Shown piece by piece: positions 41,055-48,100 of a DNA stretch of 64,000 nt. How positions within the stretch are numbered: position 1 is the stretch's first letter; the number at the start of each line of letters is the position of its first letter. The position numbers and the translations under genes were made by a program. The stretch is from a virus (Duplodnaviria; Heunggongvirae; Uroviricota; Caudoviricetes): IMG/VR virus record IMGVR_UViG_2721755711_000002; one strand, written 5' to 3'. The notes below the pieces were generated by a model. That model was not told the DNA's origin. It saw only the letters and a list, made by a program, of their open reading frames with translations, and did no database searches.

Positions 41055-41306
41055 TTAGTCCTGATTTTTATCCACCCTGAGTAGTTCACGCAGGGCAAAG
41101 GCATCCCCTTTTCTGGCAAGCTTAAACAATGCCGCCCGTAGTTCGGCTTCACCTTTCGCTCTGCCCTTACGGATGGATGCGTAAAAATCTGTCATTGCTT
41201 CCCGATTTTCTTTCAGTCGGTTCAGATCAACATCCAGAACGTCAGCGATTTGTTGTGCAGTCATCCGGCACGCTGCCAGAGACTCGACTTTCGAATACGG
41301 AATCAT
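41055..41306 (-). CDS. small HTH-like protein
   Basis: 83 aa helical protein upstream of terminase genes. Confidence 0.4.
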   Translation of the reverse strand: MIPYSKVESLAACRMTAQQIADVLDVDLNRLKENREAMTDFYASIRKGRAKGEAELRAALFKLARKGDAFALRELLRVDKNQD

Positions 41307-42174
41307 TTGTCACCCCCATTGATATGCAGGGTGTCTTCTTCCTGTATTTTTCGTGAAGGATTTTTACTGCAGCGTTGTTCCAGGTGACCTGATGGTGAAT
41401 GCGTTTATGGCTGGCCCCCATCAGTGAGATTTTTACGCACGAGGGCGCATACATGACGGAGTAAAAACTTTTAACGTAGGTTCCGGAATCCAGATACAGC
41501 TCGGTCATTCCGCCGCTGTTTTTCTGCGTCTGTTTCTGCCCTAACTGGACAGCACCGATCGTCATAAACAATTCACCACAGCGACCGAGATTCGTGTACG
41601 TATTCACATCCTCGTTAATGCGCCCCATGAATGAGAACGGTCGATCAACCGAACAGATAAAGCTGTTCATTGCCTTGCGTTTCACCCACGAAGCATGGCC
41701 GCCATTGTCACCAAGAAAATCCCCGCCCTGCGACATAGCGATGGAAAGCGCGGGTATTGATTCGTAATACGCCAGCATTTCAGAAAGGATCGCATCCAGT
41801 TTCCTTATCGGGAAATAGGCCTGGTCATAGTTGCGATCCACCCGAAACTGGAACTCGTGATAATCATCATCGAGCTGAATGAAGTATTTACACCCGACCA
41901 TTTTTGCCAGGTCGAAACAGGCATTACGGGCGTAAAAAATTGAGCGGCGGTCACCGAAATTATCGGCTTCGTCAAAACGACTGGCGATATCGGCTTTGGA
42001 AAACACCAGCACCTGTTCACCAAATTCAGCTATGTACTGATGCCGTGTCTTATCTTCATCATCAACAACGATAAAAATTTTCCCGGTATAGCCAGCACGA
42101 CGCAACGTCCGGTAAGTCAGAACTTTGTCCGGTCGCCCGTGAGTCAGAATAAAGGCGCAAAAATCATCACGCAT
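41242..42174 (-). CDS. GT-A fold (family 2-like) glycosyltransferase, soluble
   Basis: FILTHGRPD..IFIVVDDEDKT..ARNACFDLAK..YFIQLDDDY fits GT2 N-terminal pattern and DxD motif; no TM segments. Confidence 0.5.
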   Translation of the reverse strand: MRDDFCAFILTHGRPDKVLTYRTLRRAGYTGKIFIVVDDEDKTRHQYIAEFGEQVLVFSKADIASRFDEADNFGDRRSIFYARNACFDLAKMVGCKYFIQLDDDYHEFQFRVDRNYDQAYFPIRKLDAILSEMLAYYESIPALSIAMSQGGDFLGDNGGHASWVKRKAMNSFICSVDRPFSFMGRINEDVNTYTNLGRCGELFMTIGAVQLGQKQTQKNSGGMTELYLDSGTYVKSFYSVMYAPSCVKISLMGASHKRIHHQVTWNNAAVKILHEKYRKKTPCISMGVTNDSVFESRVSGSVPDDCTTNR

Positions 42175-42955
42175 ATTCCTCCTCCCCGCCATGCATGATC
42201 TCCACCATGCGCTGCGTCATCCGGACAAAACCATTTTCGATGGCTTGCTGATAATCAATGATCACCAGTGCCGACTCCTCAAAAAGGCCCTGAATTTCAG
42301 CGGGGGCGTGAGCGTAATAGTCTGCAATTCTGCTGAAATTAAACACCGTGTGGCGTTCTGCCGCGCACAGGAGGAATTTTTCGATATCAGGCTCAAGGGA
42401 CGCCGTACGTATCCGGCTGACCAGCTCCTGAGTTTTCGTATCGTCGTACAGTTCACTGATATCCGGTTCATCCCCTGACGGCTCATAAACAGGCGTATCA
42501 ATTTTCGTCGTGTACGGCTCATCCTCATTCGCTGTACCTGGCAAAACATCCGTTAATAGTTCGTCAATTTCTGTCGGGCAGAATCCTGTCAGGGAGATAT
42601 CAAAATCAGCATTGATTAGGTCCGACAGCTCCATCCGTAACAGATCTTCATCCCAGCCAGCACTCATCGGCAGGCGATTATCAGCCAGGCGGTACGCCTT
42701 TTTCTGATCATCCGTCAGACCAGACAGAACAATGACCGGAACCGAATCCATTTTGAGCGCCTCAGCCGCCATAACACGCCCGTGCCCCGCAATAATTTCA
42801 CCCTTTTCATCAATCAGCACCGGATTTGTCCAGCCGAATTGCTTAATGCTTTCAACCAGCTGTGTCACCTGTTCAGGAGAGTGTGTCCTTGCATTGTGCA
42901 CATACGGAGACAACTCTTGTAACAGTCGATAGACAATATTCAATTTTTCGCTCAT
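42167..42955 (-). CDS. ParB-like nuclease domain protein
   Basis: N-terminus LSPYVHNARTHSPEQ..GWTNPVLID..IIAGHGRVMAA resembles ParB/Srx domain; acidic C-terminal half. Confidence 0.55.
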   Translation of the reverse strand: MSEKLNIVYRLLQELSPYVHNARTHSPEQVTQLVESIKQFGWTNPVLIDEKGEIIAGHGRVMAAEALKMDSVPVIVLSGLTDDQKKAYRLADNRLPMSAGWDEDLLRMELSDLINADFDISLTGFCPTEIDELLTDVLPGTANEDEPYTTKIDTPVYEPSGDEPDISELYDDTKTQELVSRIRTASLEPDIEKFLLCAAERHTVFNFSRIADYYAHAPAEIQGLFEESALVIIDYQQAIENGFVRMTQRMVEIMHGGEEEYA

Positions 42956-43353
42956 ACAACCTCGCTTTATGAATAAAAAACTAACAGCAGCCAGTGGAGA
43001 GCATTTATCATTAACATTTACAGATAAGATGACGTACATCATTGAAACGCCATTCAGCCATATACCGGCAGCATTCGTAGTTGCACTCCGTAACTCTGCG
43101 ACTAAGGTTAAAAACATGGCCCTCTTTCGCCACCGGCAAATCTTCCATGGATTTCCCCTGCCGGTTTTTTATTTTCGTCGATGCATAACATTGCATTTAC
43201 ATCAATACCGTCTATTGTCATAAGTATGTTGTACCGATGCTCGGGTGATATTGGCGGTCTTCGCCGGCCGGTTCTGTGTAGCTGTTCCCTGTGACCGGTT
43301 TTTTATTTCTCACATTATCGCAGCCCCTCGCTGAAGGGCTGCTGTAATGTCTG

Positions 43354-44252: not shown

Positions 44253-44534
44253 TTATTTACTGCCTTGGGTGCGGCATCTGGCTATTTCATTCCTGGCTTT
44301 ACTGTCACCGCGACAGATACAACGCACCGTGTCTCCGGTCAGCGTGGTAATGTAAGCCTCATCCTCTTTTTCTACCGGAATACATGGAATATCCCCGCCC
44401 AGGCAATACTCAATTTTTGCTGCAAGATGAGTGTCACGCGGATAGAACTCCAGACGATACATATTCCCCAGAACATGCACTTCTTCAACCTGACGACCAT
44501 CTTTAGTTACCGTGATTTTTTTCAGTGCGTACAT
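44253..44534 (-). CDS. Cys-rich small protein downstream of endolysin
   Basis: 94 aa from MYALKK after GGAGG RBS; CLGGDIPC..CICRG..RC. Confidence 0.45.
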   Translation of the reverse strand: MYALKKITVTKDGRQVEEVHVLGNMYRLEFYPRDTHLAAKIEYCLGGDIPCIPVEKEDEAYITTLTGDTVRCICRGDSKARNEIARCRTQGSK

Positions 44535-44604
44535 ACGTACCTCCGTTCTTTCGTTTTTTGAGCAATAAAAAAGCCGCTCATGGCGGCCCTGTATGTTTTG
44601 CAAG

Positions 44605-44988
44605 CTATCGCTTCAATTGAAAATGTGGGCCGTCTTTAAGCGTCCGCCAGTCACCGCCCCATTCGATGGCAGTTCCAAGCTCTGCGGCAGCTTGCTTAAA
44701 TGCCTGTGCGATTTTCTCGTACAGAGGCCAGTCCCATGACACCTGGCTGCCAACATAAGCCACAACATCCACAGCATCACCGGTCAGGTGGCGGCTGTTC
44801 ATGGTCTGGCTCTTACCTTCTGCAACCAGCTGTTTCTGGCGATACTTACTGCGCAGACCTTCCGTAATACCGAAATCAACCTCCGTCAGCTCCAGCGCAC
44901 GGCGAACAACAGCAACCAGCTGTGGTTTGACGCCCTCCAGATTTTTTTCACTGCGACGACTGAATCTGAATTTACCCGACATGCTCAC
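44605..44988 (-). CDS. endolysin, peptidase M15 family (L-alanyl-D-glutamate peptidase type)
   Basis: HLTGDAVDV..WGGDW..DGPHFQL motifs typical of M15 endolysins. Confidence 0.75.
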   Translation of the reverse strand: MSMSGKFRFSRRSEKNLEGVKPQLVAVVRRALELTEVDFGITEGLRSKYRQKQLVAEGKSQTMNSRHLTGDAVDVVAYVGSQVSWDWPLYEKIAQAFKQAAAELGTAIEWGGDWRTLKDGPHFQLKR

Positions 44989-45260
44989 CTCCGGAATGAA
45001 AGGATTTTTGAAACGTTCCCGCGTGCACGTATCACCAGCACGCAGAACAGCAGATTAAGCCCCACCGCCAGCCAGTTCGCCGCTAACGGGCGACCGCACA
45101 GATAGCTGAGTGGTGCAAAGGCATAAAGCAGCATCAGTAGCCAGGCCAGCCATGACATCAGCGCTTTATGTCTGGAATCACGGCGACGATAAAAAAAGAG
45201 CGTCAGCACGATAACCGTGCTTAACACCACATTCAGTAATCCGGGAAGGTTACTTAACAT
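44985..45260 (-). CDS. holin-like membrane protein
   Basis: 91 aa with three hydrophobic segments, between holin and endolysin. Confidence 0.55.
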   Translation of the reverse strand: MLSNLPGLLNVVLSTVIVLTLFFYRRRDSRHKALMSWLAWLLMLLYAFAPLSYLCGRPLAANWLAVGLNLLFCVLVIRARGNVSKILSFRR

Positions 45261-45639
45261 TACCGCCTCCTCCCCGCAGACGGGAGAACAGCCCGAATAC
45301 CAGCGATGCGATATCCTGCTGGTGGATGAATGAGAGAATCTTCACCGACACCACCGATACCAGTACCGCGCAAAGCGCGTCGAGAGATGTGCTGTGGAGA
45401 TTCAGTTTTTCAACCAGGTAAGACGCCATCACATCCGCCCCCAGCACGCCAACAATGAACGACACCAGAAAATGCGCTGCCACACGCCAGACAGAAATCT
45501 TCTGTGGTATCGTGGCCACAAACAGCGCCCCTGCGAATGCACCAAACACAATCCCGAAATCCGTTCCGGTAAACAGCCCGAATACCGTCGCCCCACCGAG
45601 CGCCGCAGCCGTGCCGGAACCGGATAAGGGTTCAGACAT
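45250..45639 (-). CDS. holin-like membrane protein
   Basis: about 130 aa from MSEPLSG after AGGAGA RBS; Gly/Ala-rich TM segments. Confidence 0.55.
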   Translation of the reverse strand: MSEPLSGSGTAAALGGATVFGLFTGTDFGIVFGAFAGALFVATIPQKISVWRVAAHFLVSFIVGVLGADVMASYLVEKLNLHSTSLDALCAVLVSVVSVKILSFIHQQDIASLVFGLFSRLRGGGGNVK

Positions 45640-45650
45640 ACTTTTTCTCC

Positions 45651-45680
45651 TGTAAATAAAAAAGGGCCGCTGTCGGCCCG
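45651..45680 (-). terminator. intrinsic terminator abutting holin RBS (tR'-like)
   Basis: minus strand GGGCCG-ACAG-CGGCCC followed by TTTTTTATTT. Confidence 0.6.
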
Positions 45681-45732
45681 TAAAAAAACCCCCCGTCAAA
45701 GGCACCCACAGATGCCTTTTGTGTGGTGCTAT

Positions 45733-45939
45733 TTATTGCTTTAGTGTCATTTGCGCTTCAATAAAGCGACGGCGGTTCTCCGCAATAACAAACGCCATTG
45801 CCAGCCCTTTGACGGCTGCATCATGACCATACCGGGTCTGAGCAGCAGCAAACCTTCGTTCTATCGCTGCTACAGAATCAATGGCAGAATCTGCTATGCA
45901 ATTTTCAAATTCAGTTATCACTTCTGTCGAAGAGGTCAT
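45733..45939 (-). CDS. small hypothetical protein (68 aa), uncertain
   Basis: helical-looking ORF in late-operon orientation; its ATG is back to back with the ATG at 45940. Confidence 0.3.
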   Translation of the reverse strand: MTSSTEVITEFENCIADSAIDSVAAIERRFAAAQTRYGHDAAVKGLAMAFVIAENRRRFIEAQMTLKQ

Positions 45940-46620
45940 ATGTACTCCCTGAAAATTAGATGCCCGTACTGCCTTCATCAGGTTCATATTTCTCTGAATG
46001 AGGTCACCCAGTACCACAGCAGGCGCCCGGCTACAGAAAACAAGCTTTACGTGCAACAGCCGCGCACCTCTGAAATAACATCAGCAAAAGCATACTCAAC
46101 AGACTTTTGCACAGAATGTAACAACCCATTAATGATCGCATTCGAATGTTCAGTCAGTGAACTGGTGGACATGAAAAAAGCCATCAACAACAAAGCCTGG
46201 GTGCTGAATGCTCCACTTGAGGGAAGCATCAAAATCTATCCTGAACTCAGGCTGCCCGATGACTCCCCCCACTATCCCGAAAAAATTCGCGCAGTCTTCA
46301 CCGAGTTGCAAGAGGATGTTCGGTCCGGCAGAACCGCCCCGCGTATCATTGTTGGCTGCCGTAGCGTCCTCGAGGTTGCCCTCCGTGCCCTGGGGTACGA
46401 AAAAGGCAATCTGCTGTCACGCATTGAACTGGCACGGCAGGACGGCATACTGACGGAATCAATGAGAAACTGGGCTCACCGAATCCGTATGGAAGGCAAT
46501 GAGGCTGTGCACGAGCTCGAGGCCAGTGGTGAACAGGCAAAAGAGTTTGTGGCGTTTCTCCGCCTGTTCCTTGAAGTGGCATTTGTGCTACCGGAACGCA
46601 TTAAGGAACAGCAGCAATAA
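45940..46620 (+). CDS. Cys-pair / HEPN-like (DUF4145-type) protein, candidate defence effector
   Basis: C-terminal ..MRNWAHRIRMEGNEAVHELE.. fits R-x-x-x-G-N-x-A-V-H signature recalled for DUF4145; CPYC and CTEC pairs; start could be 46132 or 46171. Confidence 0.45.
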   Translation: MYSLKIRCPYCLHQVHISLNEVTQYHSRRPATENKLYVQQPRTSEITSAKAYSTDFCTECNNPLMIAFECSVSELVDMKKAINNKAWVLNAPLEGSIKIYPELRLPDDSPHYPEKIRAVFTELQEDVRSGRTAPRIIVGCRSVLEVALRALGYEKGNLLSRIELARQDGILTESMRNWAHRIRMEGNEAVHELEASGEQAKEFVAFLRLFLEVAFVLPERIKEQQQ

Positions 46621-46627
46621 AAATGCA

Positions 46628-46646
46628 GCGGGCTTTCAATGCCCGC
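46628..46646. terminator. bidirectional terminator between convergent genes
   Basis: GCGGGC-TTTCAAT-GCCCGC between stop at 46620 and minus-strand ORF end. Confidence 0.5.
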
Positions 46647-46654
46647 TCAAATAA

Positions 46655-46813
46655 TCAGCTGTTGTTTTTGTTCCGGAATAAAGGCCGGAGCACGACCAGC
46701 GCCATCGCCACCAGTACACCATCAGCCAGTACCGACATCAGCCGTCCGGTGAAATCCACCGCCACTACCAGAAACAGCAGGACGGCAGCCAGCGCAAGGC
46801 GTGCACTTTTCAC
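46655..46813 (-). CDS. small membrane peptide (52 aa, GTG start overlapping TerB stop)
   Basis: VKSARLALAAVLLFLVVAVDFTGRLMSVLADGVLVAMALVVLRPLF; hydrophobic; read by hand. Confidence 0.3.
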   Translation of the reverse strand: MKSARLALAAVLLFLVVAVDFTGRLMSVLADGVLVAMALVVLRPLFRNKNNS

Positions 46814-47235
46814 AGGTACTGCTCCAGCGGTAACTGCAGCGCCTGAGCAATTTTCTTGAGCTGTGCTTCTTCATCCGGACCAATGCCATCCTGGTCTGCG
46901 ATATCCAGACACAGGCACAGCACATTAACGGCATCATCAGTACCGGCGACATCAGCCAGTTGACGGAGGGCTTCAGCATTGGCAGAACGCGGCGATGCTT
47001 CATAACGGGCGCGGATATTCGCGCTCATCTGGGCAATCTCACCGGAGAACGGCGCAAAGGCAGGAAGTGCTGCAATGGTTTTCTCCAGTACCGCAATTTC
47101 TTTCGCGTCACAGGTGTCGTCAGCGTATGCAATGGAATACGCGCCCCAGACGGTCGCCTCCACCGCGTCGCGGTTCTCCATTTTCTTCACTTCAGTAATA
47201 GCCTTACGGGTTTTCTTTTTGAAAATACCAAACAT
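46810..47235 (-). CDS. TerB-domain protein
   Basis: MFGIFKKK start after AGGA RBS; C-terminal VLCLCLDIADQDGIGPDEEAQLKKIAQAL typical of TerB-like fold. Confidence 0.55.
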   Translation of the reverse strand: MFGIFKKKTRKAITEVKKMENRDAVEATVWGAYSIAYADDTCDAKEIAVLEKTIAALPAFAPFSGEIAQMSANIRARYEASPRSANAEALRQLADVAGTDDAVNVLCLCLDIADQDGIGPDEEAQLKKIAQALQLPLEQYL

Positions 47236-47432
47236 CGTGACTTTTCCTTTTAGTGGGTGAGCCTCGCCCCGGGATGAGCAGCCCACAGAGAAAGTCACAC
47301 TGACCATCCCGTAAGCTCCCCCCTGAAAGGCTCTGTGGTTTTTTGATGTGCGCCGGGCGTGGCGCAGATATGAAAAAGGCCACGCACGTGCGCAGCCTGA
47401 TAATTTTCTGAATCAGCGGAGTGTCAGCTGGT

Positions 47433-47924
47433 TTACCCTTTCACTTCTGAAAGGGATTTTTTGCCAAACGTCACTTCATTCATTGACATAAGTATGCTGT
47501 CTTTAATGTATTCGCACACTTCATTAATTTTTGCGTTGGTATCCACATGCGAAAATGTCCTGGCCTGATAACCATCAACCGAAATCGTCATGTTGTCGCC
47601 ATCAAGTAACAGAATACTCACTGTAATATTCACACTTACAGACTGGCGGGGATCATCATCAACAACCGTATATAAATTAAAAGTAACCCCATCCTGAAAA
47701 TCTACCTGCAAATCCTCCGGTTTCTCACAACAACTATCATGAGAAAGATAAACATAGGGATGGGAGTTACCGTCAATATCCAGCCATCGTGGTTTCGGCA
47801 ATGCCAGTGAGTCTTCATAGGTCTTGACCAGCCTTTTTGCCATATCCCGCAGTCGCTGGATGTACTCCTGTCTGGCCTCCTGAATTTCAGCCTGCTTTGC
47901 CCGAATGTCTGCATATGTGATCAC
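47433..47924 (-). CDS. hypothetical protein (164 aa), AT-rich cargo gene
   Basis: GTG start at 47924 with GGAGA RBS; N-terminal helix then beta-rich region; no family recognised. Confidence 0.45.
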   Translation of the reverse strand: MITYADIRAKQAEIQEARQEYIQRLRDMAKRLVKTYEDSLALPKPRWLDIDGNSHPYVYLSHDSCCEKPEDLQVDFQDGVTFNLYTVVDDDPRQSVSVNITVSILLLDGDNMTISVDGYQARTFSHVDTNAKINEVCEYIKDSILMSMNEVTFGKKSLSEVKG

Positions 47925-48020
47925 AGTCTCAATTCTCCTGTATACAGAAAAATAAAACATAATAATAGCCAACCGGGAAAAGATGAAAAATGCCATAACA
48001 GAACAGGCATTGCGCACGGA

Positions 48021-48047
48021 TAAAAAAATGCCCGTCATGAGACGGGC
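48021..48047 (-). terminator. intrinsic terminator downstream of tRNA gene
   Basis: minus strand GCCCGTC-TCAT-GACGGGC followed by TTTTTTTA. Confidence 0.55.
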
Positions 48048-48100
48048 TAAAACATTCATCATGCAAGAGTTAAGCAGGATTACTTGTATCGAATTATCGG

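Follow-up and report, generated by a model that had tools for sequence, protein, structure and literature searches.

A head-to-head gene pair with a HEPN gene antisense to a phage late operon

The 64,000-nucleotide stretch of Caudoviricetes DNA analysed here (IMG/VR record IMGVR_UViG_2721755711_000002, hereafter the window) carries two abutting genes between the antiterminator gene Q and the lysis genes of a phiP27-like Escherichia coli prophage, namely a plus-strand gene for a zinc-ribbon-DUF4145/HEPN protein and, head to head with it, a minus-strand gene for a small protein that we call the partner (Table 1). The original prediction, made from the letters of the window alone, had recognised a plus-strand gene ending at 46620, and this gene indeed closes with TAA 46618-46620 and encodes 226 amino acids (aa) from ATG 45940. 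Its neighbours, from Q through the endolysin gene and on to the terminase and portal genes, all lie on the minus strand, which makes it antisense to the phage late operon, as had been proposed. Taken alone, the HEPN gene is of a known kind, its domain family having been described in 2013 and a protein of the same architecture solved in 2026. New here are a conserved head-to-head partner of no known fold family, the interlocked translation starts of the two genes and a natural allele of the sensor patch.

The two start codons abut as CAT/ATG at 45937-45942, the partner start being the complement of 45937-45939, an arrangement that the original prediction had read correctly. The HEPN Shine-Dalgarno sequence AAGAGG (45930-35, plus strand) lies inside partner codons 2-4, and the partner Shine-Dalgarno sequence GGGAG (complement of 45945-49) lies inside HEPN codons 2-4. 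The same layout occurs in 10 further loci, with start codons ranging from 2 nucleotides (nt) overlapping to 2 nt apart and with equivalent purine-rich stretches at the Shine-Dalgarno positions.

From these abutting starts it had been concluded that one of the two gene calls was probably wrong, a suspicion that the comparative data overturn, since both open reading frames (ORFs) are conserved genes that form a head-to-head pair across genera. In the window, the plus-strand frame of the HEPN gene has 65 open codons ahead of ATG 45940 and is open from TTG 45751 onwards. However, this upstream frame is closed after 4, 7, 10 and 12 codons in four other loci (L016, L009, L013 and L012, respectively), and the homologues begin at the equivalent Met (M-[YF]-[ST]) in all but one of 22 aligned sequences, the exception, P0028, having an N-terminal extension that is probably a miscall. 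We therefore place the start at ATG 45940 and rejected an extension to TTG 45751 (289 aa), as no homologue except P0028 is so extended. The 29 HEPN homologues range from 98% to 42% identity and are mostly 226-250 aa long, the shorter ones probably being truncated calls. RefSeq gives a full 225-aa call in E. coli A34, while the Prokaryotic Genome Annotation Pipeline (PGAP) gives a 162-aa call in E. coli 08-00022 (L002, 6491-6979), where the 226-aa ORF is intact in the DNA and the short call loses the first Cys pair (C8, C11). Three further genomes have no DUF4145 feature over the first 17 codons, such that the RefSeq DUF4145 call begins downstream of the conserved ATG in 4 of the 5 cassette-bearing complete E. 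coli genomes, an annotation flaw.

For the partner, which current pipelines label merely as hypothetical, a profile search returned 22 proteins of 64-95 aa (the 95-aa entry being a long call of the same ORF), encoded on the same contigs as the HEPN homologues. Ten residues do not vary among them (S18, D21, S22, F30, Q34, A42, L46, A47, R56 and R57). The ratio of nonsynonymous to synonymous rates (dN/dS) between the window and L003, the locus of E. coli A34, is 0.07, and distant pairs give pN 0.20-0.41 against pS 0.63-0.90 (saturated), all comparable to the HEPN gene's own values. An AlphaFold2 (AF2) model of the partner, built with database sequences, consists of three helices at a predicted local distance difference test score (pLDDT) of 92.7, and Pfam, PADLOC and NCBIfam gave no match to the protein. 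Because of the strong purifying selection, the homologues and the confident predicted fold, we regard the minus-strand ORF as a real gene, and the comparisons indicate that both ORFs are real and form a conserved two-gene unit, joined start to start.

An intact partner abuts the HEPN start in E. coli A34, E. coli 08-00022, L028, two Salmonella contexts, Trabulsiella, Budvicia, Pantoea, a Paraburkholderia Mu-like prophage and metagenomic phages. A conserved partner sits at the HEPN start codon in 13 loci of the window's clade, and among the sampled loci all those with a HEPN protein of about 46% or more identity to the window's give a match to the partner profile, except L006-L008; a separate scan of genome contigs returned 3 loci only. 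The partner is inherited together with the HEPN gene in phages of both Gamma- and Betaproteobacteria. In L006-L008, a partner remnant lacks an ATG and contains an internal stop, and the HEPN ORF beside it keeps every invariant residue; this HEPN protein occurs on at least 7 contigs. The partner is thus dispensable for carrying the ribonuclease (RNase) gene. Just beyond the decayed partner (about 4700-5000 in L006) lies an NMT1_3-family gene.

In more distant relatives the picture is mixed. L018 and the Mu-like L021 have a divergent 63-71-aa ORF 10-13 nt away, with weak collinear similarity to the partner profile; L020, L022 and Klebsiella phage 2b lack one. The Stx/lambdoid clade (Shigella phage 75/02 Stx gp19, POCJ13, Escherichia phages PhiR5_2 and PhiR12_3; PHROG 1305) carries a full-length homologue of the HEPN protein (hhalign probability 99.4%, E=1.9e-21, 27% identity), with POCJ13 and PhiR5_2 matching at the same level as the other two. 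In the two loci examined, 75/02 Stx (L024, 2008-2926) and PhiR12_3 (L026, 1972-2926), the homologue is likewise antisense to its neighbours and head to head with a small ORF, here of 81-93 aa and with a 2-nt start overlap, but this ORF has no detectable homology to the window partner and the pair lies in the early/nin region, beside a RelE/ParE toxin-antitoxin (TA) pair and, in 75/02 Stx, a Ren-like exclusion gene. Across all contexts examined, at least 12 and independent of one another, the HEPN gene runs against the phage genes that flank it and the small ORF runs with them, be it in the Q-to-lysis slot, the lysis-to-terminase slot, the Mu GemA-DUF3164 region or early or nin regions.

Domains of the HEPN protein and its relation to RAZR

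A Pfam search, as suggested in the original prediction, matched residues 137-202 to DUF4145 (PF13643, clan CL0291; E=2.3e-11) with 44.1 bits against a gathering cut-off of 23.1, and precomputed PF13643 matches exist for 29 of 29 homologues. PHROG 1305 matches near full length (residues 2-225 on model positions 13-216 of 226, E=2.5e-23), and a search of NCBIfam with the 226-aa protein gave no curated model above its cut-off. The protein begins with MYSLKIRCPYC; its CPYC motif holds C8 and C11, its CTEC motif C57 and C60, and MRNWAHRIRMEGNEAVHELE lies near the C-terminus. In the conservation alignment of 22 sequences, which reaches down to 43% identity, the four cysteines are invariant, together with D107-D108-S109, P113, R117, R141, E145, R183, G186, A189 and H191, and N187 and E188 are invariant or nearly so. 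The two Cys pairs and the DUF4145/HEPN signature of the original prediction are thereby borne out, and the R..H signature is a genuine family motif and not a chance match.

The AF2 model of the HEPN protein (pLDDT 75) has a beta zinc ribbon (strands 3-7, 14-18, 48-56 and 63-71), a low-confidence loop at residues 27-44 and a helical C-terminal domain at residues 114-225; when it was compared with the PDB using Foldseek, the sole HEPN structure listed was 7ae6_B, which was not significant (probability 0.38). Conservation is uneven along the protein, with a mean column identity of 0.50 over residues 1-100 versus 0.78 over residues 101-226, and two homologues, P0004 and P0005, share about 48% identity over the N-domain versus 96% over the C-domain. 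Between the window and L028 (3501-4190), nucleotide identity is 45-72% within 46020-46250, while outside this patch it is 87-98% over the partner gene and the first ~27 HEPN codons and 88-100% over the HEPN domain. L028 can be considered a natural allele, and this pattern suggests cassette-like exchange or diversifying selection on the sensor. Differing almost solely in the zinc-ribbon patch, the window and L028 alleles could serve directly to map trigger recognition.

In 2022, Vassallo described the defence system PD-T7-4 as “Zn finger-HEPN” from E. coli UMB1727 (RRL46918.1; the cloned region had 349 nt upstream; PMC9519451). It was since renamed RAZR, ring-activated zinc-finger RNase (Zhang 2026, PMC13017515; PDB 9Y9C and 9Y6U). 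In RAZR, a Cys4 zinc ribbon at the N-terminus is joined by a conserved linker to a C-terminal DUF4145 domain, of which R146 and H154 are needed for defence; the protein is non-toxic alone, and it is activated as a 24-mer built around a ring-shaped phage protein (a putative recombinase or the T7 portal), whereupon it cleaves single-stranded RNA non-specifically and the infection is aborted (PMC13017515). Phage specificity is set by the zinc-finger domain, which varies more than any other part of the protein (PMC13017515). RAZR demonstrates that the shape of phage protein rings can be sensed by a protein of the zinc-finger-HEPN type (PMC13017515).

The window protein, a connection missed by the original prediction, resembles RAZR in its length class (~210-230 aa), in the order of Cys4 zinc ribbon, conserved linker and C-terminal DUF4145/HEPN domain, in the R-x7-H spacing (R146/H154 in RAZR versus R183/H191 in the window protein) and in having the zinc-ribbon domain as its fastest-evolving part. 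Additionally, residues 99-225 give a weak, position-consistent match to the PADLOC PD-T7-4 model (17.4 bits, E=5.9e-4, model positions 64-186 of 211, that is 123 of 211). It differs in a 45-residue insert between the Cys pairs of its zinc ribbon and in the conserved head-to-head partner of its clade, RAZR being described as a single-gene system; ten shorter representatives of the family score at most 30 bits against PD-T7-4. At the level of sequence, the window protein is not a member of the RAZR family, and RAZR/PD-T7-4 is its closest characterised relative. We consider it part of a large sister family to RAZR that is found almost entirely in prophages: a profile search of 1.84 billion cluster representatives recovered 2426 relatives at E<=1e-3, with 103 reaching E<=1e-30 and the majority being full length (210-250 aa), so that about 100 close, full-length cluster representatives are known.

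Other described systems are further removed. DS-38/HEP2 (WP_001313577.1), a validated E. coli defence protein, likewise combines a HEPN domain with a zinc finger (PMC13092281), and its authors reported that its alignment with PD-T7-4 is confined to the HEPN domain (DefensePredictor, Science 2026, PMC13092281). We rejected identity with it, as its gene has 1101 nt (~366 aa versus 226 aa in the window) and the window protein's signature peptides are absent from the sequence tables of PMC13092281. The DUF4145/HEPN survey already listed a zinc-ribbon fusion, occurrence in double-stranded DNA viruses and links to defence (Anantharaman 2013, PMC3710099), but it provides the domain definition only and gives no account of a partner gene or a head-to-head layout. 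BstA/aba (PMC8585504) and TerI/anti-TerI1,2 (bioRxiv 10.1101/2025.02.27.640495) are similar in concept only, in that a prophage-encoded defence protein acts in the lysogen and a linked element neutralises it once that prophage turns lytic; they are unrelated to the window pair in sequence and fold, aba being a DNA element and TerI acting against the terminase. For the pair described here, self-immunity is read solely from gene orientation and terminators.

Table 1. Genes, domains and signals of the cassette and of the adjoining phage region (window coordinates).
Feature	Position	Strand	Basis or remark
Zinc-ribbon-DUF4145/HEPN gene, 226 aa	45940..46620	+	PF13643, PHROG 1305, homologues
Partner gene, 68 aa, three-helix model, no known family	45733..45939	-	Co-oriented with phage late operon
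Interlocked translation starts	45930..45949	both	Read from sequence
Cys4 zinc-ribbon domain, residues 1-71	45940..46152	+	Cys codons 45961-63, 45970-72, 46108-10, 46117-19
Hypervariable patch in zinc-ribbon domain, ~residues 28-104	46020..46250	+	L028 comparison
Conserved linker P-D-D-S-P-H-Y-P-E-K-I-R, residues 101-117	46240..46290	+	Mean column identity 0.76
DUF4145 match, residues 137-202	46348..46545	+	Predicted catalytic R183 (46486-88) and H191 (46510-12)
Hairpin	46627..46647	-	Canonical intrinsic terminator for minus-strand transcripts entering the cassette; stem-loop only on the + strand
Strong terminator GGGCCG..CGGCCC + UUUUUUAUUU, between partner stop and holin	45664..45679	-	Phage backbone, not insert
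Antiterminator Q	50226-50921	-	PF06323, E=5e-89
N6/N4 DNA methylase	48619-49665	-	
ORF up to 277 aa (TTG start), between methylase and TerB	47433-48266	-	No Pfam match
TerB	46810-47307	-	
DUF3927/TciB-like membrane ORF, 52 aa	46655-46813	-	
Holins	45250-45642 and 44985-45260	-	
M15 endolysin	44605-44988	-	

Transcription signals and proposed function

A minus-strand polymerase arriving from Q meets, in this order, a terminator, the antisense HEPN gene, the partner gene, a second terminator and the holin gene. The first of these had been put forward as the HEPN gene's own bidirectional terminator. A hairpin is indeed present there, but a bidirectional terminator is not supported, as a U-run (GCAUUUUUAU) follows on the minus strand only and the plus-strand stem is followed by CAAAUAAU. 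Neither L003 nor L028 shares this hairpin. In L003, the HEPN stop is followed by another terminator, canonical in both directions, whereas L028 has none, and for this reason we regard the terminator as specific to its context and not as part of the module. The second terminator belongs to the phage backbone, given that 45640-45732 is common to 141 E. coli genomes at 92-97% identity, most of them without the cassette. With two terminators bracketing it, little minus-strand transcription across the cassette is therefore expected without antitermination, and Q-modified polymerase would cross it. At the plus-strand 3' end of the HEPN gene, where no canonical terminator was found, an extended stem spans 46604-46669 (-29.9 kcal/mol, z=-5.3); it pairs the last HEPN codons GGAACAGCAGC with GCUGUUGUUUUUGUUCC and encloses the terminator hairpin.

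The promoters of both genes must lie within the opposite coding sequences. The sole recurrent candidate is TGnCAGAAT at 45882-45890 (plus strand), a weak element resembling an extended -10 and lying 49 nt ahead of the HEPN ATG, which recurs in the four closest loci. Since it is also the complement of the partner's invariant D-S codons, constraint on a promoter and constraint on the protein are inseparable at this element.

The reading that we favour, with moderate confidence, is that the pair comprises a RAZR-like prophage defence RNase and a dispensable partner, the latter possibly a self-immunity or regulatory protein. The HEPN protein would be produced in the lysogen, driven by a promoter of its own within the partner gene, and would stay idle until its hypervariable zinc-ribbon domain recognised a protein of a superinfecting phage; RNA cleavage through a composite HEPN active site would then stop translation and abort the infection. 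Both the infection-triggered RNase and the zinc ribbon that recognises a phage protein are carried over from RAZR, and the abortive-infection reading gains support because RAZR is an experimentally shown abortive-infection RNase with a zinc finger and a DUF4145 domain (PMC13017515). The partner would not be needed to keep the RNase harmless. Because it is directed with the operon and lies between two minus-strand terminators, it would be expressed mainly when Q-modified polymerase reads through in the prophage's own lytic cycle, in a transcript that would run antisense across the HEPN gene. Its most likely role would be to turn the RNase off or neutralise it while the prophage itself develops, as self-immunity or as a regulatory toggle. 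Drawn from geometry only, the partner's role is the weakest step of this proposal.

Several observations weigh against the proposal of a RAZR-like defence RNase with a dispensable partner. The 17-bit match to PD-T7-4 covers the linker and the HEPN domain only, the zinc-finger part being missing, and neither 9Y9C nor 9Y6U was retrieved by PDB sequence searches (with the protein, the family profile or an intermediate sequence) or by Foldseek. Any activity of the partner is a guess from position and orientation because the protein has no recognisable fold relatives, fold and profile searches of the PDB and a fold search of BFVD having given no significant match. A sigma-70 consensus scan produced nothing convincing for either gene. 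Besides, the Mu-like and early-region contexts have no Q-type read-through, so the expression logic of the window may not generalise.

A more specific version, which we offer only tentatively and consider possible, is that the gene geometry itself, through partner and antisense transcription, constitutes a self-immunity switch, an expression unit with two mutually exclusive states. Transcription of the HEPN sensor-RNase in the lysogen would begin inside the partner gene while the terminators would exclude antisense transcription; upon induction, operon read-through would silence the HEPN gene by antisense transcription or collision and would also yield the partner, which might bind the conserved linker/HEPN part and block activation by the prophage's own ring-forming proteins, e.g. 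the portal. The interlocked starts and Shine-Dalgarno sequences would be the conserved core of such a switch, and the distant Stx-phage clade, with its unrelated small ORF, may have arrived at the same solution or retained it. With each ribosome-binding site inside the other gene's first codons, the pair would offer a concrete case of a prophage sparing itself its own abortive-infection RNase.

Alternatively, the pair could be an obligate two-component defence system whose proteins are both produced in the lysogen, from divergent promoters that overlap, with the partner as a required subunit (adaptor, sensor or assembly factor). The strict co-occurrence, the start-to-start geometry conserved across genera and the analogous small divergent ORF in the distant Stx-phage clade would all fit such a system. 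We nevertheless judge it unlikely, as the partner has decayed beside a retained HEPN gene in L006-L008, is 98.5% identical at the protein level in L028 and so does not vary together with the hypervariable patch of the sensor, and is flanked by a minus-strand terminator on either side, without a detected promoter of its own.

Less likely still, in our estimation, is an addiction module in which a constitutively active HEPN toxin is held in check by a labile 68-aa antitoxin and the pair stabilises the prophage instead of sensing phages. HEPN domains are common as TA toxins (PMC3710099), the partner gene is small, tightly linked and co-inherited, and the Stx-phage relatives adjoin a RelE/ParE TA pair. 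However, type II TA modules consist of co-transcribed genes with an antitoxin that is indispensable while the toxin is intact; here the genes are divergent and not a bicistronic operon, and L006-L008 combine a partner pseudogene with an intact HEPN ORF, which recurs on at least 7 contigs. The distant members L020, L022 and L025 are without the partner, and RAZR is non-toxic alone (PMC13017515).

The HEPN protein might also serve no defence at all and act on the phage's own RNA or DNA as a regulatory or nucleic-acid-binding factor, its antisense placement being incidental. PHROG 1305 and the RefSeq name of the Stx-phage homologue both read “DNA binding protein”, and the gene is always found inside phages, but these labels are mere annotation. 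We find this explanation improbable in view of the invariant catalytic R/H dyad, the accessory nature of the insert, which occurs in 5 of 5426 E. coli genomes and is missing from close relatives of the same phage, a hypervariable recognition domain of the kind typical of immune sensors and a nearest tested relative that is a defence RNase (PMC13017515).

Finally, the view that one abutting ORF is spurious, with the HEPN start elsewhere (e.g. TTG 45751) or the 68-aa ORF alone being real, draws on the open upstream frame in the window, on the 162-aa PGAP call and on the three genomes whose DUF4145 feature does not reach the first 17 codons, but sequence comparison already refutes it, given the upstream frames closed in four loci, the homologues and PHROG 1305 that start at the Met of ATG 45940, the loss of two of the four invariant Cys in the short call and the strong purifying selection and confident predicted fold of the minus-strand ORF. 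Overall, the earlier interpretation of the locus is partly supported; its core, an antisense HEPN gene, is correct, and it had missed that the partner gene belongs to the system.

Insertion slot and phage neighbourhood

The insert was delimited with blastn against a relative that does not carry it, phage vB_Apl-pPE4 (L001, PP818812.1), as 937 bp at 45734-46670. Window segments 44570-45733 and 46671-47381 are contiguous in L001 (4302 to 4308), where 45733 adjoins 46671, and the two phages are 85-92% identical on either flank, the locus being absent from vB_Apl-pPE4. Of 5426 complete E. coli genomes, only 5 carry the cassette. At 90% identity, the holin region matches that of the Stx2e phage phiP27, in which stxA2e and stxB2e lie immediately upstream of the corresponding holin, after a methylase gene and tRNAs; the original prediction was thus correct, for this phage lineage, in naming the site as one where stx and other morons are carried. 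The Q-to-lysis slot of this phiP27-like E. coli prophage is occupied by a moron-type insert, the cassette. Like other prophage morons, it is a discrete insert that a close relative lacks, within a phage operon and with terminators on both sides; as for transcription signals of its own, the promoter scan identified no promoter of the HEPN gene.

TerB and the DUF3927/TciB-like ORF (46655-47307, minus strand) make up another accessory block, which adjoins the insert on its upstream side. A coupling of DUF4145 with TerD is mentioned in the HEPN survey (PMC3710099), and we rejected the adjacency of TerB as a functional link, since TerB and DUF3927 also occur in L001, which is without the cassette. 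The insertion has replaced the last few codons of the DUF3927 ORF, which ends in ..PLFRNKNNS in the window versus ..PLLRKSE in L001. This relative was deposited as an “Actinobacillus phage”, yet its 85-92% DNA identity extends over the lysis, TerB and DUF3927 genes, which is unexpected for a Pasteurellaceae host. Further upstream, the equivalent of the ORF between the methylase and TerB carries the RefSeq name helix-turn-helix protein in E. coli 08-00022, with 247 aa. An Rfam scan of 44500-47600 found no RNA family, the two matches both being far below gathering scores. On the other side, between the lysis cassette and the terminase small subunit (41242-43117, minus strand), two 316-aa ORFs contain a ParB_N domain (PF02195, E=2.6e-6) and a TET-associated glycosyltransferase domain (TAGT, PF20691, E=6e-35), respectively, a pair that may represent a phage DNA hypermodification module.

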